A stretch of DNA of 64,000 bases from a virus, in IMG/VR virus record IMGVR_UViG_3300042197_002243. One strand, written 5' to 3'. The position numbers and the translations under genes are program-made. A model generated the notes under the pieces. The model searched no databases. It was not told the origin of the DNA and saw nothing but the letters and a program-made list of their open reading frames with translations. How positions within the stretch are numbered: position 1 is the stretch's first letter; each line of letters starts with the position of its first letter. Below are positions 7,600 through 50,130 of the stretch, piece after piece.

Positions 7600-8106
7600 T
7601 TATAACCAATTGAAGTTAATATTATATCTCGCTTTATTAGTTGTAGTTGTAGAATTGTGCAATAAAGATCCATCAAAAAATACTATTCTATTTTCAATAC
7701 TGTCAATTTTAGTTCCATCATTCATTCTGGTAAACCCATCACAAGTGTTTAAAGAAAATAAAGCTGCATGATGTGGAAATTCATAATCAGCGTGCTTTTC
7801 ATTTTCTCTTACAATATTTGTGTGAGGATATAAATTCACTTTGATTCTAAGTAAAGATTTTACTCCAACTATTTGACTAAATTTTGGAATAAAAATATCA
7901 TAAATGCTTTTAAAATGATCGCTATATGGAACATTATTAGTATATATCATATGATTCGCATACCAACGCCAATCATATTCTGATTCTTCGGCAAACGTAA
8001 CTTTGTCGCTAATATATAGAGGAAAATTTGACCCATAAACAATTAGATTTTTTAAATTTTCAAATTCTTCTTTGGGTAAAAAATTATTAATTACTTTGTA
8101 ATCCAT
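7600..8106 (-). CDS. 2OG-Fe(II) oxygenase-like protein
   Basis: HAD (HxD) motif, distal H in LLHNS, and RYNINFN. Confidence 0.75.
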   Translation of the reverse strand: MDYKVINNFLPKEEFENLKNLIVYGSNFPLYISDKVTFAEESEYDWRWYANHMIYTNNVPYSDHFKSIYDIFIPKFSQIVGVKSLLRIKVNLYPHTNIVRENEKHADYEFPHHAALFSLNTCDGFTRMNDGTKIDSIENRIVFFDGSLLHNSTTTTNKARYNINFNWL

Positions 8107-8738
8107 TCTAATGCCTCCGAAACAAAAGGAAATTGTTCAGAAAATACTTTCTTACATTCAAGTGCAATATCCAGGTGTTCTTTTTGAGTCCCGTTTGCCG
8201 AACGGAGATTGATATAATGAATCCAGGAACGGCAAGAACCCGTCATATAAATGCGTGTGGGCGTCGCTAAGGGTAGTACAAATCGAGCACATTCCTTTGC
8301 TACTCCATGATTAAGAAGTTTCTTATAGAGTTTATTTGCATCTTCAAAATGCTTTGCAATTTCACCTTGAAGAGTAAGTTTTAAATAACCATCAAAATCA
8401 TCAATGGAATTTTGACGATTCTTGGTGTCTTGGCGACGAAGTTCTGGAGTTGGAATGTGTTCAGACAAAAGATTTGTGTCCGCATAACGTTGCGAAAATT
8501 CCTGAAATGTAAATGAACGGTGACGCAAAATTTGTGCTGCAATACCACGAGTCGTCTCAATCTCAAGCGTCATAGAAGACTGTTCAAACACAGACCAATG
8601 ATTATGCTTAATGCAATAAGCAAGCAACTTGGCATAGTTCTCGTTATCCTGATTAGCAGGATTAGAGACTCGTGCAATGTATGCCATTGTTTTTTCGGCA
8701 TCTGGAGTAACGCTAATGAGTTTTACTGAAGTGTTCAT
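8091..8738 (-). CDS. thyX: Flavin-dependent thymidylate synthase
   Basis: HWSVFE, RHRSFTFQEFSQRY signature, KECARFVLP. Confidence 0.97.
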   Translation of the reverse strand: MNTSVKLISVTPDAEKTMAYIARVSNPANQDNENYAKLLAYCIKHNHWSVFEQSSMTLEIETTRGIAAQILRHRSFTFQEFSQRYADTNLLSEHIPTPELRRQDTKNRQNSIDDFDGYLKLTLQGEIAKHFEDANKLYKKLLNHGVAKECARFVLPLATPTRIYMTGSCRSWIHYINLRSANGTQKEHLDIALECKKVFSEQFPFVSEALEWITK

Positions 8739-9241
8739 AACATTTTTAATAACTGATAATTTTTGTGATGCATTCGATCACGAGTATAAGTTTTATGTAA
8801 ATTTTGTTTTGTTAGATTATTTTCAATACAAAATCTAGTTAGATTATCTACTTTTATTACATCATTATTTGGTGTTTTAACCAACCACTTTTTAGAATTG
8901 TCTGGCATTTTATAAACATTATTTTTGATAGCATCTTCGATATTTTCTTTTATTGTTCCCCATTTAAGATTAGATAAAGAATTATTTTCTTTGTTATCAT
9001 CCAAATGTCTAACTATTTCATAATTTAATGGATTTGGAAGAAAAGCCATTGCTAATAATTGGTGCAATGCTTTATGTTTTCTTTTTCCAAAAGCATCATA
9101 TAAAGTAAAAGCATAATATCCTCTTTTATTTTTGTGACCACTAATATATTTTTTAAGTTTAATTGAATAAACTTTTCCATCTGGATATATTTTATAATGA
9201 GGATACTCCTCAATTATTTTATAATCCGTCTCCATCATCAT
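8735..9241 (-). CDS. HNH homing endonuclease (NUMOD4/HNH_3-type)
   Basis: HQLLAMAF, VRHLDDNKENN..SNLKWGT..EN; stop overlaps the thyX start. Confidence 0.85.
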   Translation of the reverse strand: MMMETDYKIIEEYPHYKIYPDGKVYSIKLKKYISGHKNKRGYYAFTLYDAFGKRKHKALHQLLAMAFLPNPLNYEIVRHLDDNKENNSLSNLKWGTIKENIEDAIKNNVYKMPDNSKKWLVKTPNNDVIKVDNLTRFCIENNLTKQNLHKTYTRDRMHHKNYQLLKML

Positions 9242-9467
9242 CGTTTATTAATCGATATGATTTATTTATAGAATTAGTCACATCATCTTCGTAGTCATCG
9301 TCTTCAAACACCTCATCATAATCGTTGAGGGCTGCTGTAATTTTATCATACTCTAGGTAACTTTGAGTGTCAGAATAAATTTCAGACTTCAAAGAATCTA
9401 CTAGCAATTCAAGATTGCGAACAATCAATTTAAGTTTGTCTTTGTCCATAAAATGATATTCTTTCAA
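9219..9467 (-). CDS. Conserved cyanophage hypothetical protein (acidic C-terminus)
   Basis: KLKLIVRNLELLVDSLKSEIYSD motif. Confidence 0.7.
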   Translation of the reverse strand: MKEYHFMDKDKLKLIVRNLELLVDSLKSEIYSDTQSYLEYDKITAALNDYDEVFEDDDYEDDVTNSINKSYRLINDDDGDGL

Positions 9468-9480
9468 TTCATTTTATCAT

Positions 9481-9506
9481 AAAAAAAGGAGGGTGTAAAC
9501 CCTCCC
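9481..9506 (-). terminator. Intrinsic terminator ending the DUF4278 micro-operon
   Basis: Minus strand GGAGG-GTTTACAC-CCTCC hairpin followed by a T run. Confidence 0.75.
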
Positions 9507-9510
9507 AATT

Positions 9511-9594
9511 CTATTTGAATAAAAATTGAATATAAAGAGACAATAAAACAAGTACAACCGCAGATCCTGCGGCAATTTGTAATACTGCGAACAT
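9511..9594 (-). CDS. 27-aa hydrophobic peptide (MFAVLQIAAGSAVVLVLLSLYIQFLFK)
   Basis: ATG overlaps the upstream stop (TAATG); single TM-like segment; absent from the ORF track. Confidence 0.55.
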   Translation of the reverse strand: MFAVLQIAAGSAVVLVLLSLYIQFLFK

Positions 9595-9692
9595 TACTTT
9601 GCTCCAACGAGTTGTGCTAATTGTGCTTGATAACGACGCTCTTCTTTTTGTTTTTGTTCTTTAATGAGTTGTAGAAAGTTAAGTTTCTTCAT
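9594..9692 (-). CDS. 32-aa basic helical peptide (MKKLNFLQLIKEQKQKEERRYQAQLAQLVGAK)
   Basis: TGATG translational coupling to the DUF4278 ORF; absent from the ORF track. Confidence 0.65.
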   Translation of the reverse strand: MKKLNFLQLIKEQKQKEERRYQAQLAQLVGAK

Positions 9693-9829
9693 CACTTGTG
9701 CCCCTCCTTTACAAACTTAACTCCACGATATGTTTCATTATATTGTTGAGGCTGTTGCATCATTTGCTGTTGGTATTCGATACGCTTTTGCGTATCATAT
9801 TCGACACCACGATATACGACTTTAGACAT
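9692..9829 (-). CDS. DUF4278-family small protein (45 aa)
   Basis: MSKVVYRGVEYD...YRGVKF with two YRGV motifs; AAGGAG SD at 9837-9842. Confidence 0.85.
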   Translation of the reverse strand: MSKVVYRGVEYDTQKRIEYQQQMMQQPQQYNETYRGVKFVKEGHK

Positions 9830-9861
9830 TAGGTTGCTCCTTTACTTGGTTAGGGTATTGG

Positions 9862-9917
9862 TGCGTTCCTTCAGTTTCCCTACTTCCGTTCGCCATTTGA
9901 AAATAGCGAATGAACGT
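9862..9917 (-). ncRNA. glnA-type (glutamine-I) riboswitch
   Basis: Minus strand CGTTC-ATTCGCTATTTTCAAATGGCGAAC-GGAAGTA-GGGAAACT-GAAG-GAACG: P1 CGUUC/GAACG, P2 hairpin, E-loop GGAAGUA/GAA; sits upstream of DUF4278. Confidence 0.85.
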
Positions 9918-9940
9918 ATAATATATTAGATACTTTTTTT

Positions 9941-9954
9941 GTAACTTTTGTTAC
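9941..9954. promoter_or_regulatory. NtcA-binding site (GTA-N8-TAC)
   Basis: GTAACTTTTGTTAC palindrome about 25 bp upstream of the riboswitch 5' end. Confidence 0.7.
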
Positions 9955-10277
9955 CGTTCTATGTAACTCAGAGTATGATTCTGAGCATAGAGTTGTTGAA
10001 TGATTATATCACATCCTATTTTTGGGTTACATTCCCCACAAGTATAAACGTCCACCGCTGCCTTGCCTTCCTCAGGCCATGTGTGAATACTGATATGACT
10101 TTCTGACAATAGACAAATAACGGTGACTCCTTGCGGTTCAAACTTTTTTGAGATGGTTTGAACGACAGTGGCTCCACTAGCAGCCGCAGCATTTTCCAAT
10201 AAATCTATAAGGCAACGTTCATCATCTAAAAGCATGAATGAACAACCATATAAGTTTAGTAGATAATGCTTACCCAT
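9951..10277 (-). CDS. speD: S-adenosylmethionine decarboxylase proenzyme
   Basis: MGKH.L, F.PQGVT, LSESHISIHTWPE and DVYTCG motifs. Confidence 0.95.
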   Translation of the reverse strand: MGKHYLLNLYGCSFMLLDDERCLIDLLENAAAASGATVVQTISKKFEPQGVTVICLLSESHISIHTWPEEGKAAVDVYTCGECNPKIGCDIIIQQLYAQNHTLSYIER

Positions 10278-10455
10278 CGTCGTCTAATTCTTTAAGTAAA
10301 TTATTTACCAGAGTTTCCGTCCCATCCATAGTTTTAATTTTAAAAAGACTAGATCTTTGATATCGTTTAATTTTTTTATAAACTTTCAAAACTTCTTGAA
10401 GTTTATCTTTATCAATTGATACTTCAATTTTCTCTTCACTGAAACCTGAACTCAT
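10270..10455 (-). CDS. Hypothetical protein
   Basis: ORF coupled to both neighbours. Confidence 0.6.
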   Translation of the reverse strand: MSSGFSEEKIEVSIDKDKLQEVLKVYKKIKRYQRSSLFKIKTMDGTETLVNNLLKELDDDG

Positions 10456-15329: not shown

Positions 15330-15432
15330 GAAAGATCCAGGGGGAACTGGATAATACGGTATTCCCCACACCACCCTCCAGTGTGGGTATGAGAGACGTA
15401 ATTTATCCTCCCATAGGTCTCGGTTAACGGGA
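15330..15432 (-). ncRNA. Structured psbA 5' leader (PhotoRC-II-like RNA motif)
   Basis: GAGAC/GTCTC, CCCACAC/GTGTGGG and ATCCAG/CTGGAT stems upstream of phage psbA. Confidence 0.6.
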
Positions 15433-15460
15433 GTCTTAAGAAACGTTACATTCCTTAATC

Positions 15461-30972: not shown

Positions 30973-30980
30973 CGTAACTC

Positions 30981-31068
30981 AGGCTCGCCACCAATTCTTT
31001 GACTGGAAATTGGAAACCAGGCGGGGTTTCCCCATCCGCACCACTTGTTTTTTAAAGAAACAAGAAAC
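30981..31068 (-). ncRNA. wcaG/manA-type cyanophage structured RNA (two UGGYG hairpin units)
   Basis: Two GTTTC-stem-TGGYG units upstream of an NDP-sugar epimerase; exact Rfam family not verified. Confidence 0.65.
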
Positions 31069-31779
31069 TTATTTTTTCCTAAAAAACCTAAATGGGCATT
31101 TGGAGGTTTTATTAGAATCAAATATAATATCCTGATATTTAAATCCCAAACTGTGTCGTTTTGAATTTACAAAAAATATTCTTTTATACATATCCGAAAG
31201 TTGTCGTGGATTAATTTCATTATAAATTAAATTAAAATTATCATTATGATTTTTACTATGAAATTTTATATAATATAAAGGATCTCCTCTATTAATGATC
31301 ATAGGTTTATCTCTATCCACAACAACTGCCCCAATATTAATTAATCTGGGCCAATTGCTCAAATTAAACCACCCACCACAATGATAAAAATTATTTTTTA
31401 AAGATGTTAATGGGTGAGGAAGAATTGATATCCAAATGTTTTTATCTTTAGTCCAAAAAAAATTGCTATACAAATTTGCAATCTGAATTATTGAATGTTT
31501 ACCGTTATTCCAATTTTTTGCAAGAATAATATATTCATCAAATTCTTTTTGATTTAAATTATTTGAATGAACATAATCAGAATTTGTATCTATTTGTAGA
31601 TGTAAATTTGATGATGCATAGACAGTAAAAATTTTAGAACTTTGATGAGCCCATACTGGACAAGATGAAAGAATAGAATCTTCTGAATAACTTGTATCAA
31701 TTTTTATTGGTACATGCAAATTCTCCACAGAAGATGGAGATTTTGGATCAGGATGATAAAAAATTTTTTTACTTTTCAT
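31069..31779 (-). CDS. Hypothetical protein (AT-rich accessory gene)
   Basis: CP.W, GWFNLSNWPR, I.RGDPLYY and C-terminal KCPF. Confidence 0.65.
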   Translation of the reverse strand: MKSKKIFYHPDPKSPSSVENLHVPIKIDTSYSEDSILSSCPVWAHQSSKIFTVYASSNLHLQIDTNSDYVHSNNLNQKEFDEYIILAKNWNNGKHSIIQIANLYSNFFWTKDKNIWISILPHPLTSLKNNFYHCGGWFNLSNWPRLINIGAVVVDRDKPMIINRGDPLYYIKFHSKNHNDNFNLIYNEINPRQLSDMYKRIFFVNSKRHSLGFKYQDIIFDSNKTSKCPFRFFRKK

Positions 31780-34097: not shown

Positions 34098-34170
34098 TGC
34101 TCCTTGAGGGGATTGAACCCACCTTAGCCGAATTATGAGTTCGGTGCATTCACCAGATTGCTAAAGGAGC
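34098..34170 (-). tRNA. tRNA with CAU anticodon (Met or Ile2)
   Basis: Cloverleaf; anticodon arm CCGAA-CTCATAA-TTCGG. Confidence 0.9.
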
Positions 34171-34174
34171 ATTT

Positions 34175-34255
34175 TGGGCGAGGGTGTCTGACCACGATAA
34201 TCTACGATTCAGCAGAGGGGACCCTTCGTTTAATACAACGTTCCTTGTTGCACCC
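34175..34255 (-). ncRNA. Unidentified ~80-nt structured RNA between two tRNAs
   Basis: GC-rich; terminal GGGTG/CGCCC stem plus internal hairpins; no canonical cloverleaf. Confidence 0.5.
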
Positions 34256-34257
34256 AA

Positions 34258-34329
34258 TAGGAACACTGGGAGTTGAACCCAGACTAACCCGTTATAAGCA
34301 GGCCGCTCTAACCATTAAGCTATGCTCCC
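34258..34329 (-). tRNA. tRNA-Ile(UAU)
   Basis: Cloverleaf; anticodon loop CTTATAA. Confidence 0.9.
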
Positions 34330-34330
34330 A

Positions 34331-34552
34331 CTACGATCCCTCTTCGTGATCGGTGTGGATGCGTATGATTTCTGAATCCACTTTAGATTCTTCAAATATT
34401 TCTATGACTTCCTTATAAGGAACCATAACCGCGTTTCCATGCTCGCTTGTTATGATAAACGATTCTCCATTTTCTACTCTAGACATTAGATTATCAAAAT
34501 CTGCTTGAAAATCTTCTACTGTGTACGTTTGAAGTTCGTGATTCATTTTCAT
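34331..34552 (-). CDS. Phd/YefM antitoxin-like protein
   Basis: TVEDFQADFDNLMSRVENGESFIITSEHGNAVMVPY fits the Phd N-terminal pattern. Confidence 0.6.
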   Translation of the reverse strand: MKMNHELQTYTVEDFQADFDNLMSRVENGESFIITSEHGNAVMVPYKEVIEIFEESKVDSEIIRIHTDHEEGS

Positions 34553-34565
34553 AAGTAAATTAATA

Positions 34566-34637
34566 TCGGGGCGACAGGGATCGAACCTGTGACCTCTGGT
34601 TCCCAAAACCAGCATTCTACCGCTGAACTACGCCCCG
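34566..34637 (-). tRNA. tRNA-Pro(UGG)
   Basis: Cloverleaf; anticodon loop TTTGGGA. Confidence 0.95.
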
Positions 34638-34661
34638 TTGTCTTTTCTTGAATGTACGACC

Positions 34662-34690
34662 ATTATACCCAAGATAGGGACCATTGTCAA
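34662..34690 (-). promoter_or_regulatory. Consensus sigma70 promoter for the tRNA-Pro/Ile/CAU cluster
   Basis: TTGACA-17bp-TATAAT. Confidence 0.85.
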
Positions 34691-34734
34691 CAGATAGCAA
34701 AGTGTTCCCAGGAATATATCATTATTTAACAAAG

Positions 34735-34938
34735 TTACGACAAGGTGATTTTGAGCCATGGCAGTAATGGTGGAATGACACCTATGAGTCTGAGGAGACC
34801 TTCAGCAAATAAAGCAAGAACGACCCAACCAACACACATAGAAATAATTGCGGCATTGCGGTTGTGCTGACGAATTGCATCATCGATCATCTCTTGTACT
34901 TCAGACCGACTTACAAGTTCATCTTGTTCTTGAATCAT
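34735..34938 (-). CDS. Small membrane protein
   Basis: EVQEMIDDAIR.HNRNA followed by a TM segment. Confidence 0.7.
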   Translation of the reverse strand: MIQEQDELVSRSEVQEMIDDAIRQHNRNAAIISMCVGWVVLALFAEGLLRLIGVIPPLLPWLKITLS

Positions 34939-35084
34939 TTTTCATCTCCAAGAAATTTTGCTAAGGGATCTCTTCTGGTTTTTATAATTTCAACTGCTCT
35001 TTTATAGAACATATTATCTGTATTACCAGAAGATTCAAAGGTTTCTTTGATCTTCACCCAATTATCATAGGTGTGTTGATCCAT
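34935..35084 (-). CDS. 49-aa hypothetical protein (MDQHTYDNWVKIKETFE...)
   Basis: ATGA coupling to the next ORF; own promoter (TTGACT...TATAGT) upstream; absent from the ORF track. Confidence 0.65.
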   Translation of the reverse strand: MDQHTYDNWVKIKETFESSGNTDNMFYKRAVEIIKTRRDPLAKFLGDEK

Positions 35085-35179
35085 GAGTTTGTAGTGATAA
35101 TACTACTATATACTAATCACTACAGTTCAAAAGTCAACCATTGTGTTCATTATGTAACACTGTTTAAGAAATTATTAAA

Positions 35180-36352
35180 TCACCAGAAATTTGTATAGGT
35201 ATCCTTAAACTCCATTTTTTGTCCCATCATACCAGCATGAACTTGAAGATAATCTTTATATCCAAAACATCCAATGTTGAAATATTCCCTTGAAGAGAAT
35301 TTTCTATCGTGCTGAAGAGCATCTTCATAATATTCTCGATTAGTAATATATGAAGTATTCATTAATTCTTGTGATCTTTTTACAACATCACTCCAAAATG
35401 AGGATTTGTATTTAGACCCATAACTGTAATGCCATGCAAGAGATAATTGATAGTTAAACATTTCTTTGTAATATAGTTGATTATATTTGACATAGTTTTC
35501 ATGCTTCCTGTCACCGATAAAAGAACAAATAAAATCCGCAAACATTGCGTAATAGTGTAATGATAAAGCTTGTAAAGGTTCTAAAAACATTAGTCGGTTT
35601 CCATTATAAGAACAAAAACGATTTTGAATCATTTTTTTACAATATTTTGGATCCCAAGATATGTGTTTTACATTTTCATATCCAATACTTTTTCTTGCAT
35701 CTTCAATACTTGTAAATTTTGAATTAAAAAGATATCCGTGTTTGATTAAGTTTCTATCTGGAAATGGAAGACCAAATTGCCAACCATCAATCGTCGCTAA
35801 ATGATGTGTGTATGGTTGACTACTGAAACATTCTTTAGAATAAACAAGTGCATTGTTCACCGTTTCAAAAATTGGTTTTCTATATTCATCTCCTCTATCC
35901 CATCCAGAACAACAAATTAAGTGATCATAAGAAATATCATTAATAATAATTTCTTCCAAATCTAAATTGACATCATATTTTTCAATTTTAAAAGCATGAT
36001 ATTTTACTCCACGTTTTTCTAAAATGTCATGAATAAATTTATTAAATGTGCCGCTTTCAAAATGAAAAGCTACAAAGTTACCATTAAAATAATGTCGGAA
36101 AGTATTTCCTATTCCCCATCCGTCAAATAATATACCATTTTTAAGTGAAACAATATTTTCATCTATTAAATCGCCTATTGAGATATTTAATGTTTCTTTA
36201 ATTATTCTTGCAATATGTGGAGTTGTAGATTCACCAACGTTTAAATGAGGTTTATTTGGATCAAAATATATTTCAACATCATAACCATTTTTAATACACA
36301 CAAGGGATGTAATAATTGCGGATGTCCCTTTACCTAAAATTGCTATTTTCAT
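35180..36352 (-). CDS. Tryptophan-halogenase-like flavin-dependent enzyme
   Basis: ILGKGTSA, VGEST.P, AFHF, GWQFGLP and GN...FLEPLQA motifs. Confidence 0.8.
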   Translation of the reverse strand: MKIAILGKGTSAIITSLVCIKNGYDVEIYFDPNKPHLNVGESTTPHIARIIKETLNISIGDLIDENIVSLKNGILFDGWGIGNTFRHYFNGNFVAFHFESGTFNKFIHDILEKRGVKYHAFKIEKYDVNLDLEEIIINDISYDHLICCSGWDRGDEYRKPIFETVNNALVYSKECFSSQPYTHHLATIDGWQFGLPFPDRNLIKHGYLFNSKFTSIEDARKSIGYENVKHISWDPKYCKKMIQNRFCSYNGNRLMFLEPLQALSLHYYAMFADFICSFIGDRKHENYVKYNQLYYKEMFNYQLSLAWHYSYGSKYKSSFWSDVVKRSQELMNTSYITNREYYEDALQHDRKFSSREYFNIGCFGYKDYLQVHAGMMGQKMEFKDTYTNFW

Positions 36353-36369
36353 TTGACACTACTTATAAA

Positions 36370-36454
36370 CGGAAGGGGTGGGATTCGAACCCACGGATGC
36401 TTGCACATCGCTAGTTTTCAAGACTAGAGCCTTCAACCACTCGACCACCCTTCC
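36370..36454 (-). tRNA. tRNA-Ser(UGA)
   Basis: Cloverleaf with long variable arm; anticodon loop CTTGAAA. Confidence 0.95.
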
Positions 36455-36459
36455 AATAT

Positions 36460-36708
36460 TTAACGAACGTCAAATTCGAGTTTACGAACTTTACGCTGTC
36501 TCCTTGCCTCCTGAAAGGCAAGATCTTGGGATGAAAGAATACCAGATTGTTTTTTCTGGTTATGTGATTCTACCACAACTATTTGAGATAAGTCAATCGC
36601 AGAGATCTTGTCCTCTTTCACTGACATCTGATTTGGGCAACCGCAAACCTGTAGTTTGGATGTACCAATCAATTCTTTGTTGCAGCATTTGCATCTGACT
36701 ACTAACAT
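36460..36708 (-). CDS. Conserved cyanophage Cys-rich hypothetical protein
   Basis: C..C, CGCPN and C-terminal RRQRKVRKLEF motifs. Confidence 0.75.
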   Translation of the reverse strand: MLVVRCKCCNKELIGTSKLQVCGCPNQMSVKEDKISAIDLSQIVVVESHNQKKQSGILSSQDLAFQEARRQRKVRKLEFDVR

Positions 36709-36804
36709 GATCCAATTTACCTTTAATCTCTTCTAATTCTTCGTGAATATCTTGATGATGAAACCTCAAGGGTCCCTGAATAAGTTTACTAATAGTTTTC
36801 TTTT

Positions 36805-37242
36805 TCATTCTTTTAAAAAGGAACGTAACATCCAAACATTTTTACCATGTGCTTCCATTAAATCTTGAACTAGATTTGCTGTAGCATATTGTCTTTGTTT
36901 TTCCGACTCTTCTGAAATTTTAGCACACATTTCACAAAATGTCTTGTTATCAGCAAGCAATTGACTGACCATCGATTCTGCAGTTGATGAAGTTTTTGCC
37001 TCAGGAATTTCCGAAGTTTCAACAACCATACTAATTGGACCTATGGCTTTCATGCGAAGATAACGCATATGTTCTGTAAGGCGATCAATTTCCTCAAACA
37101 TTGTTTCATATTGCTTACCAAATATTTTATGTAGTTGATAGAAATCAGATCCCACCACGTTCCAATGATAAACCCAGGTTTTCTGAAATAAACAGAAAAG
37201 ACTTGTTTGTGCTTTATGAAGAAGTTCGTATAACTCGTCCAT
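36805..37242 (-). CDS. dps: Dps/ferritin-like protein
   Basis: YHWNVVG.DF.QLH..F..QY, D.L.E..R and H.K..WML motifs. Confidence 0.92.
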   Translation of the reverse strand: MDELYELLHKAQTSLFCLFQKTWVYHWNVVGSDFYQLHKIFGKQYETMFEEIDRLTEHMRYLRMKAIGPISMVVETSEIPEAKTSSTAESMVSQLLADNKTFCEMCAKISEESEKQRQYATANLVQDLMEAHGKNVWMLRSFLKE

Positions 37243-37265
37243 TATCTTTTTGAAGTATTTATAAG

Positions 37266-37338
37266 TGGGAGCAGAGGGATTCGAACCCCCGACATTCTGC
37301 GTGTAAAGCAGACGCTGCTACCGCTGAGCTATGCTCCC
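37266..37338 (-). tRNA. tRNA-Val(UAC)
   Basis: Cloverleaf; anticodon loop TTTACAC. Confidence 0.95.
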
Positions 37339-37749
37339 ATATTTTGGATGATTTCCATTTTTATATCTTCCACCTTTACTTTTATTTGGAGGTTGAGTTT
37401 TTAGAGAATGACAATTTGGACATAAAACTTGCAAATTGTCTGGCGAATGATTAAATGGATTATCATCAATATGATCAATTTCAAGTGGAACTTTTCCTGT
37501 ATGAATATTAGTTCCAAACCACCCACATTTAGAGCACTTATGTTGTGCTGCTTCCATGAGGTAATTTCTTACATATTGAGATAAATTGTAAGAAGAACCT
37601 CCTGAAACTAAACCTTGTTTCCATTCAGCAATATACTGATTTCTAAAATGTTCTTGTTGGCACTTATTATTACAATACTTACCTCTTTTATGGTAAGGAT
37701 TATATTCAAATACCTTAGAGCAATTTAGACAGATCGCAGTTTGTTTCAT
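37318..37749 (-). CDS. HNH endonuclease in the tRNA cluster
   Basis: CSKCG, LEIDHID.N..N..P.NLQVLCPNCH; 3' end runs into tRNA-Val. Confidence 0.9.
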   Translation of the reverse strand: MKQTAICLNCSKVFEYNPYHKRGKYCNNKCQQEHFRNQYIAEWKQGLVSGGSSYNLSQYVRNYLMEAAQHKCSKCGWFGTNIHTGKVPLEIDHIDDNPFNHSPDNLQVLCPNCHSLKTQPPNKSKGGRYKNGNHPKYGSIAQR

Positions 37750-37753
37750 ATAT

Positions 37754-37792
37754 TTGGTAGAATACTTTTTTATTTATAAGGTATTCTACCAA
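37754..37792 (-). promoter_or_regulatory. 12-bp inverted repeat with a late promoter in its loop
   Basis: TTGGTAGAATAC / GTATTCTACCAA enclosing TATAAATA (37771-37778), 4 nt from the HNH ATG. Confidence 0.8.
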
Positions 37793-37864
37793 CTCCCCCG
37801 GCAAGATTCGAACTTGCGACCCATTGATTAACAGTCAACTGCGCTACCGCTGCGCCACAGGGGA
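37793..37864 (-). tRNA. tRNA-Asn(GUU)
   Basis: Cloverleaf; anticodon loop CTGTTAA. Confidence 0.95.
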
Positions 37865-37871
37865 ATTTAGG

Positions 37872-37942
37872 AGCGGGTAACCGGGTTCGAACCGGTGATT
37901 CCAACTTGGAAGGATGGCGTGTTACCGCTACACCATACCCGC
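37872..37942 (-). tRNA. tRNA-Gly(UCC)
   Basis: Cloverleaf; anticodon loop CTTCCAA. Confidence 0.95.
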
Positions 37943-37952
37943 TTATGAGACA

Positions 37953-37981
37953 ATTATAGAGTAATTGAGTATAATTGTCAA
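37953..37981 (-). promoter_or_regulatory. Consensus sigma70 promoter for tRNA-Gly/Asn
   Basis: TTGACA-17bp-TATAAT. Confidence 0.85.
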
Positions 37982-38055
37982 CAGGTCCAGCAGGACTCGA
38001 ACCTGCGACACACAGCTTAGAAGGCTGTTGTTCTATCCATCTGAACTATGGACCC
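37982..38055 (-). tRNA. tRNA-Arg(UCU)
   Basis: Cloverleaf; anticodon loop CTTCTAA. Confidence 0.95.
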
Positions 38056-50057: not shown

Positions 50058-50130
50058 TGGAGATAAGGAGACTCGAACTCCTGACATCCTGCTTGCAAAG
50101 CAGGCGCTCTACCAACTGAGCTATATCCCC
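50058..50130 (-). tRNA. tRNA-Ala(UGC)
   Basis: Cloverleaf; anticodon loop TTTGCAA; G3:U70 pair. Confidence 0.95.

Follow-up and report, generated by a model that had tools for sequence, protein, structure and literature searches.

Within a 64,000-nucleotide (nt) stretch of viral DNA (IMG/VR virus record IMGVR_UViG_3300042197_002243; hereafter, the window), which is part of the genome of an uncultured freshwater T4-like cyanomyovirus, we found a polycistronic unit of three translationally coupled microprotein genes that is self-contained from an NtcA-type box to an intrinsic terminator. The unit lies directly after the gene speD and comprises, in order, the box, a glutamine aptamer, a Shine-Dalgarno (SD) sequence, three coupled small open reading frames (ORF1 to ORF3) and the terminator (Table 1). 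It probably serves as a self-contained nitrogen-status cassette that mimics those of the host, with a phage modulator of host nitrogen assimilation, made only in glutamine-replete cells, as the likely outcome. Glutamine riboswitches of cyanophages, predicted NtcA sites of cyanophages and the link between riboswitches and DUF4278 genes in hosts are already published; for the phage three-peptide operon behind these known control parts, no description was found in the searchable literature.

A first-pass annotation, made from the letters of the window, had described a box, a riboswitch, a strong SD sequence, three coupled small ORFs and a terminator at this locus. All of these elements are present on the minus strand, at or a few bases from where they had been placed, and the lengths and motifs assigned to the peptides were also accurate (45, 32 and 27 amino acids (aa); two YRGV motifs and QQQMMQQPQQ in the first, a basic second and a transmembrane third peptide). 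The GTGATG start of ORF2 overlaps the TGA stop of ORF1, ORF2 and ORF3 overlap in TAATG, each ORF has its own SD sequence, located 7 nt upstream, and the ratios of non-synonymous to synonymous polymorphism (pN/pS) fall between 0.06 and 0.33, which is the pattern of a coupled operon. We regard all three ORFs as real genes, because they are under purifying selection and occupy conserved slots in related loci. The relatives were collected by scanning IMG/VR with an alignment of ORF1 relatives, which yielded 348 confirmed relatives; the 80 kept for comparison show 93–100% protein identity in ORF1 and are far apart in their DNA. A scan of genome contigs, the pattern of which was too narrow, returned seven loci, mostly on phage contigs that had been binned into unrelated metagenome-assembled genomes.

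The glnA-type riboswitch fold proposed in the first-pass annotation was confirmed by an Rfam covariance-model search, in which RF01739 matched over the full model (positions 1–53); the score was 54.1 bits, the gathering score is 35, and the E value was 4e-9 when calculated for the whole window and 5e-11 locally. Helix P1 is formed by CGUUC and GGAACG, the variable hairpin occupies positions 9910–9889, and the conserved core reads ACGGAAGUAGG...GAAGGAACGCAC; taken alone, this aptamer exceeds chance expectation. Each of the 80 distinct aptamer sequences of the relatives has a closed variable hairpin, and more than 20 different stem sequences are used, which amounts to covariation; P1 is uninformative in this respect because it is invariant in the relatives. 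From its sequence, the element is a genuine glnA-type glutamine aptamer, and ligand binding is predicted. Most relatives, and phage S-PM2 as well, carry two tandem aptamers of 29–38 bits each, whereas the single aptamer of the window (54 bits) is the most canonical of the set.

A candidate expression platform follows the aptamer, in which GCACC, consisting of the last P1 base and the next 4 nt, may pair with GGAGC of the SD sequence. The probability of this pairing was approximately 0.35 in the free ensemble, and the pairing was lost once P1 was enforced. In the commonest leader type among the relatives, CUCUUUA right after P1 pairs with UAAGGAG, and the probability that the SD sequence is paired was 0.97–0.99, compared with 0.6–0.8 for shuffled sequences. 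The leader would fit the model of a translational ON switch that has been put forward for gifB (PMC6212724), a cyanobacterial gene to which we return below.

In many relatives, the variable hairpin of an aptamer encloses a whole conserved ORF; this holds for both aptamers in L032 (755–1160), L072, L016 and L047, and for the second aptamer only in L002 (596–820), L003 (599–830) and L024. The ATG of each nested ORF lies within the 5' core of the aptamer, and the last codons and the stop lie within the 3' core. The ORF nested in aptamer 1 encodes 68 aa with a signal-peptide-like N-terminus (MTKALLLLAWVPLL...), and that in aptamer 2 encodes 50–55 aa with the pattern M..LLLTCLQAQ...C.IDAK.D. Tandem leaders with a nested gene (L002, L003, L016, L032 and others) share with the window the box, the aptamer or aptamers, ORF1 (93–100% identical), ORF2 and the terminator, whereas the window lacks the second aptamer and either nested ORF, and its variable hairpin is a plain 22-nt stem-loop. 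With a single aptamer, no nested gene and a promoter of another kind, the copy in the window is a reduced derivative.

The sequence GTA-N8-TAC occurs 12 times within the window, where 7.0 +/- 2.8 matches are expected, and the box alone is not significant; it exceeds chance through its conservation among relatives. At least 75 of 81 related loci have the box at a constant site ahead of the first aptamer; GTA, TAC and the 8-nt spacing are kept there, the N8 is free and the flanks read tGTA...TACa. Of 52 unique promoter regions anchored on the -10, 46 contained the box, which was found 6–9 positions into the 30-nt stretch ahead of the -35. The box stays with the cassette whichever of at least three genes precedes it, and in the window it overlaps the TAA stop of speD, with the aptamer match beginning 24 bases further downstream. 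NtcA sites have been predicted widely in cyanomyoviruses (PMC3037559).

The promoter beneath the box differs between leader types. The window has a candidate -10, TAATAT, for which no convincing -35 was found in the window, and the tandem-aptamer leaders read box-N8-TTGACT-N17-TATAAT-N7-aptamer; the distance from the box to the -10 is 12–13 nt in the former and 31 nt in the latter. At canonical NtcA-activated promoters, the box is centred at -41.5 and TAN3T follows 22 nt further on; at repressed ones, it lies over the core promoter or the transcription start. If TAATAT is the -10, the centre of the box would be near -31.5, which would resemble the NtcA-repressed gifA promoter, where the box is at -30.5 (PMC6316151). 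The only call of a sigma-70 scan in this region, GTTACA-16-TATTAT (9945–9918; 9 of 12 matches), was not adopted because transcription would then start inside helix P1. As a separate observation, a short inverted repeat flanks the -10 TATAAT in tandem-leader promoters (L023 at 1013–1075, L063, L090 and L069), with compensatory changes between loci (GGTC/GACC, GAGG/CCTC, GGGG/CCCC, GAGAT/ATCTC and GGGAG/CTCTC). An RNA hairpin is not an obvious explanation for this repeat, because its 5' arm is expected to precede the transcription start.

It is conceivable, but in our judgment rather unlikely, that the box is not an NtcA site at all and is instead bound by a different factor, acts as an UP-like or structural element of the promoter or is left over from the upstream terminator, in which case the riboswitch alone would sense nitrogen. 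The unexceptional count in the window, the spacing to the -10 that varies with leader type, and the fact that neither spacing equals the canonical 22 nt of NtcA-activated promoters would favour such an explanation, as would the S-SRM01-like subgroup, in which an upstream terminator hairpin has the box as its 3' arm. However, fixed half-sites at a fixed spacing around a free N8, with conserved flanks, are the pattern of a dimeric site of the CRP family and not that of a hairpin; the same motif is found on host DUF4278 genes (host loci; PMC6212724), and the predictions for cyanomyoviruses cited above point the same way.

With regard to the encoded proteins, sequence comparison identifies ORF1 as a DUF4278 relative with homology to the corresponding part of IF17-like proteins, in agreement with the first-pass assignment. 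Eleven of 11 diverse phage relatives of ORF1 match Pfam PF14105 (best E = 5.4e-7), ORF1 belongs to phrog_5049 (2.5e-10; PHROGs), and the Atlas clusters nearest to it carry PF14105 (DUF4278). The ORF1 family profile aligned with DUF4278 proteins of 149–150 aa at an hhalign probability of 96% (E = 3e-9), over the second and third YRG motifs of these proteins; ORF1 itself ends after its second YRG motif. Selection on the family is strong, with a pN/pS of 0.06 among 67 unique sequences (0.53 synonymous and 0.033 non-synonymous changes per site), and the two other frames of the same 67 sequences, used as controls, gave 1.9 and 5.1. ORF1 contains eight CAA or CAG codons, and its Q tract is confined to a close clade, being absent from the relatives in P-SSM2, S-PM2 and P-SSM7; a role of this glutamine-codon run as a third nitrogen sensor is speculation.

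Of 81 loci, 79 contain ORF2, the start of which always lies within the stop of ORF1 (4-nt overlap). It occurs as an MKKLN family (56 loci, 44 unique sequences, pN/pS 0.26) and an MNTYF family (21 loci, 15 unique sequences, pN/pS 0.17), and it has no match in Pfam or NCBIfam and no matching Protein Data Bank (PDB) chain at E values up to 10. Its profile does match the N-terminal helix of the fusion family phrog_545 (hhalign 93.6%, E = 2e-7), which comprises cyanophage proteins of 54 aa, with 561 relatives in IMG/VR, in which this helix is fused to a two-YRG domain. The YRG part of phrog_545 matched ORF1 weakly (49% over 11 columns). Such proteins (e.g. QPB08419 of S-H9-2) combine in one chain an ORF2-homologous helix and two YRG motifs resembling those of ORF1, and the S-H9-2 gene sits behind a glutamine aptamer, as the cassette genes do; compared with the window, the order is reversed, with the helix first, and the parts are fused. 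We suggest that ORF1 and ORF2 act together, because many other cyanophages make both as one polypeptide; judging from these sequences, ORF2 is probably the partner of ORF1.

The first-pass annotation had proposed that the phage controls host glutamine synthetase (GS), with the basic peptide as a detached, IF7-like GS-binding module. In its full form, this proposal describes a GS-inactivating system, in which an IF17-like ORF1 and an IF7-like ORF2 shut down host GS at high glutamine. In favour of the proposal, gifB is governed by the same logic, an NtcA box combined with a glutamine riboswitch (PMC6212724). ORF1 shares homology with the DUF4278 region of IF17-like proteins; ORF2, like the GS-binding segments of inactivating factors, is basic and helical; and Klahn 2018 (PMC6212724) saw short host DUF4278 proteins as candidate GS regulators. 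However, the ORF2 profile reached only 0.2% in hhalign against the Arg-rich C-terminal part of IF17-like proteins, matching the phrog_545 helix instead; neither ORF1 nor ORF2 has the C-terminal IF7-like Arg-rich GS-binding region, and the cassette does not contain any GS-related gene. The comparison proteins of 149–150 aa are presumably IF17, to judge from their length and their architecture of three YRG motifs and a C-terminal ...NLRRNLERRL... helix. Moreover, the DUF4278 part of IF17 has been reported to be dispensable for GS inactivation (PMC6316151), and control of GS is therefore unsupported by the proteins that the cassette encodes. We hold phage inactivation of GS to be improbable.

ORF3 is, from its hydropathy, an accessory membrane peptide, the best 19-residue Kyte–Doolittle window of which averages 2.36. 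Of 81 loci, 31 have a transmembrane-like ORF in the third slot; these ORFs fall into three to four subfamilies (3–14 unique sequences each), with pN/pS values of 0.21–0.33. Distant relatives were found in MC09, metaG-MbCM1 and the phage-like contig L099. Nothing similar was found in Pfam, NCBIfam or PHROGs, nor by tblastn in isolate phages at E values up to 10, and it is from the IMG/VR relatives only that ORF3 is known as a gene. A fourth coupled ORF of approximately 51 aa was also observed (L047 at 1421–1573 and L089 at 1436–1588; also downstream of ORF3 in L013 and L060); it has a single TYRGC.YW motif and four cysteines (M..Y.YH.DDMD...PPACY.LTYRGC.YWSCY...), with no Pfam match.

We give little credence to the idea that the peptides affect the membrane or the timing of infection (for example lysis timing, transport or exclusion) instead of nitrogen assimilation, with glutamine only a read-out of the metabolic state of the host: the transmembrane peptide is coupled in those 31 loci and directly follows the DUF4278 gene in L047, L008 and L099, and for a glutamine riboswitch of phage Melnitz a role in timing, without relation to glnA, has been discussed (PMC9004378), but the peptide is dispensable, being absent from 50 of 81 loci and from S-PM2, S-SRM01 and DSL-LC02, the invariant members ORF1 and ORF2 are soluble, and nitrogen-regulated host proteins are the sole homologues of ORF1.

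The control layout of the cassette copies that of the host, where an NtcA box, a glutamine aptamer and a DUF4278 gene are likewise combined (host loci; Klahn 2018, PMC6212724). In Synechocystis sp. PCC 6803, gifB, which encodes IF17, has an aptamer of the same RF01739 class in the 5' leader of a DUF4278-containing gene (PMC6212724, PMC6316151). The gifB promoter is NtcA-repressed, an NtcA-type box is found at the promoter in both gifB and the phage cassette, and the proposed switch is also an ON switch, in which bases just 3' of P1 mask the ribosome-binding site. However, IF17 has 149 aa with a C-terminal IF7-like GS-binding region, whereas the 45 aa of phage ORF1 hold the two-YRG DUF4278 part only. 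The phage adds the coupled basic helix and the transmembrane peptide, neither of which was found beside the host genes examined.

A second group of host genes encodes short DUF4278 proteins. Among Cyanobiaceae, 34 of the 41 genomes searched contained a DUF4278 match, and their DUF4278 genes have a GTAGC-N4-GCTAC box 5–7 nt ahead of a glutamine-II aptamer and downstream of the -10, which is a repressing position according to Klahn et al. (PMC6212724). Prochlorococcus MED4 PMM1846 (yfr6) and the picocyanobacterial 'Downstream-peptide' loci encode stand-alone DUF4278 proteins and have a leader aptamer and GTA-N8-TAC (PMC6212724, PMC2864571); in the host loci examined here, these proteins have 55–73 aa. 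In these hosts the aptamer is of the glutamine-II (DP) class and the box, 5–7 nt ahead of it, lies over the transcription start, whereas the window has a type-1 aptamer and a box 24 nt upstream; moreover, the host genes were monocistronic in the loci examined, in contrast to the polycistronic phage unit.

Among phages, glnA RNAs have been reported in the T4-like cyanophages S-PM2, P-TIM68, ACG-2014f and S-CREM1 (PMC9964418 Table S7; also PMC9602691), so that the occurrence of glnA motifs in cyanophages, as stated in the first-pass annotation, was already on record. The published entries give coordinates only, and the downstream genes are undiscussed (PMC9964418 Table S7). The S-PM2 locus is syntenic with the window, in the order speD, aptamers, p190, p191, terminator, p192 and td. 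In the searchable literature, we found no mention of a phage DUF4278 gene, of the coupled peptides or of the three-peptide operon.

We propose that the cassette would operate as follows. Binding of glutamine would stabilize P1 and take up GCACC, which would otherwise pair with the SD sequence, as in the gifB leader; with the SD sequence freed, translation of ORF1 and, via coupling, of ORF2 and ORF3 would therefore rise at high glutamine (ON switch). Host NtcA with 2-oxoglutarate would bind the box, which here is probably located over the -35 region (approximately -31.5), resulting in repression under nitrogen shortage. ORF1, with a DUF4278 fold, and ORF2, a basic helix, would act jointly, and ORF3 would be an optional membrane-anchoring or membrane-acting accessory. 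GS would be just one candidate target of these proteins.

Several observations weigh against this model, the whole of which was derived computationally. Where the box lies relative to the promoter is a guess, which makes the sign of the putative NtcA control a guess as well; besides the terminator arm of the S-SRM01-like subgroup mentioned above, the box centre of approximately -50.5 in the tandem leaders is neither the classical activating position (-41.5) nor a repressing one. The anti-SD pairing of the window is weak, since for the tail alone the probability that the SD sequence is paired was 0.49, compared with 0.61 for shuffles, and the folding energy of the whole leader was no better than that of shuffled sequences (z = -0.09). 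ORF1 itself scored 19.7 bits against PF14105 (E = 0.0011), which is below the cut-off of 25.3. An AlphaFold2 model of the fusion protein reached a predicted local distance difference test (pLDDT) score of 58 and a predicted template modelling (pTM) score of 0.28, too poor for a fold search or an argument from contacts. Metatranscriptome contigs from lakes (three studies; 85–95% alike, hence relatives) mapped within 9100–10400 to 9523–9986 alone, where the bare flanks carry no evidential weight and depth cannot rank expression; this coverage is a weak hint of transcription, in favour of the model, but it coincides with the most conserved part of the region, so that conservation bias or contaminating DNA may account for it.

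The remaining features of the region and of the window are listed in Table 1. Terminator-like sites in the region numbered four, where 0.4 were expected, and a hairpin and T-run of the same kind ends the cassette in relatives. The gene downstream of the cassette, of the phrog_878 family, has its promoter-like site within the cassette terminator and is the next gene after the cassette in the window as well as in S-PM2, S-SRM01, S-H9-2, P-TIM68 and many IMG/VR loci. A gene resembling a homing endonuclease stands between the cassette region and thyX, and in phage MC09, too, a homing endonuclease is found just 3' of the cassette.

Table 1. Coordinates of the cassette, its neighbours and other features of the window
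Feature	Position	Strand	Evidence or remark
speD (S-adenosylmethionine decarboxylase, 108 aa), upstream neighbour	9951–10277	-	Pfam AdoMet_dc, 2.2e-35
NtcA-type palindrome GTAAC-AAAA-GTTAC (GTA-N8-TAC)	9954–9941	.	sequence
Candidate -10, TAATAT	9928–9923	-	inferred; 12 nt after the box, 6 nt ahead of CGTTCA of the aptamer
Type-1 (glnA-type) glutamine riboswitch aptamer, single copy	9918–9860	-	RF01739, 54.1 bits
Candidate expression platform	9864–9837	-	GCACC (9864–9860) against GGAGC of the SD sequence AAGGAG (9842–9837)
SD sequence of ORF1, AAGGAG	9842–9837	-	7 nt ahead of ATG
ORF1, 45 aa, DUF4278-type	9829–9692	-	YRGV at residues 6–9 and 34–37 around the Q-rich linker QQQMMQQPQQ
SD sequence of ORF2, AAGGAGG	9709–9703	-	
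ORF2, basic (+5) helical peptide	9695 (GTG, 33 aa) or 9692 (ATG, 32 aa) to 9594	-	
GGAG site of ORF3	9605–9602	-	
ORF3, 27 aa, single-pass hydrophobic (transmembrane) peptide	9594–9511	-	hydropathy; TAATG coupling to ORF2
Intrinsic terminator	9506–9477	-	8-bp G+C-rich stem (9506–9487), 4-nt loop, then T-run
Promoter-like site for the next gene, TTTACA-17-TAAAAT	9499–9471	-	overlaps the terminator
Next gene (MDKDKLKLIVRNLELLVDSLKSEIYSD..., acidic C-terminus)	9219–9467	-	phrog_878, 4e-15
HNH_3 homing-endonuclease-like gene	8735–9241	-	3e-7; between cassette region and thyX
thyX	8091–8738	-	Thy1, 2e-49
PhotoRC-II RNA	15351–15448	-	82 bits
wcaG RNA	30977–31072	-	102 bits
Cluster of nine tRNA genes	34098–38055	-	
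One further tRNA	50058–50130	-	

The window carries wcaG and PhotoRC-II RNAs, ten tRNA genes, psbA-region homology, speD and thyX, and its DNA was matched in freshwater and lake metagenomes. The nearest isolate genome was that of DSL-LC03, from a lake, which covered 11% of the first 25 kb of the window at 84.7% identity. Copies of the cassette were also seen on contigs of metagenome-assembled genomes labelled Bacteroidota, Acetobacteraceae, Poseidoniales, Rhodospirillaceae and Dehalococcoidia (L091–L095), which are most likely mis-binned cyanophage contigs, and on a 189-kb contig in a Prochlorococcus single-cell assembly (L097/L099), which resembles a cyanomyovirus genome.

The regulatory parts of the window are textbook and its copy of the cassette is reduced; its main value lies in the partnership of ORF1 and ORF2 and in the strength of selection on the ORF1 family. 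In the most abundant marine phototrophs, hundreds of glutamine riboswitches precede genes for DUF4278 or 'Downstream-peptide' proteins, a family without a demonstrated function. Cyanophages keep a DUF4278 copy under the same two nitrogen signals and under very strong purifying selection, paired with or fused to a conserved basic helix. The natural fusion provides a concrete hypothesis of cooperation between ORF1 and ORF2, which the culturable relatives S-PM2, DSL-LC02 and S-SRM01 make testable. A bolder proposal, of which we are doubtful at present, is that ORF1, ORF2 and, in loci that have it, ORF3 assemble into a phage-specific microprotein complex derived from the host nitrogen network, which would be placed behind a two-input gate and would hit a host target other than through the known IF7-type contact; candidate targets are PII, PipX, NtcA, a membrane-located ammonium transporter or, via a new interface, GS. 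If this were true, the gate (2-oxoglutarate via NtcA and glutamine via the aptamer) would limit the complex to a state typical of productive infection, and the cassette would offer the first functional handle on the large unexplained DUF4278 or 'Downstream-peptide' family. Our results point to a small, tractable module by which viruses read, and probably adjust, the nitrogen status of their hosts.

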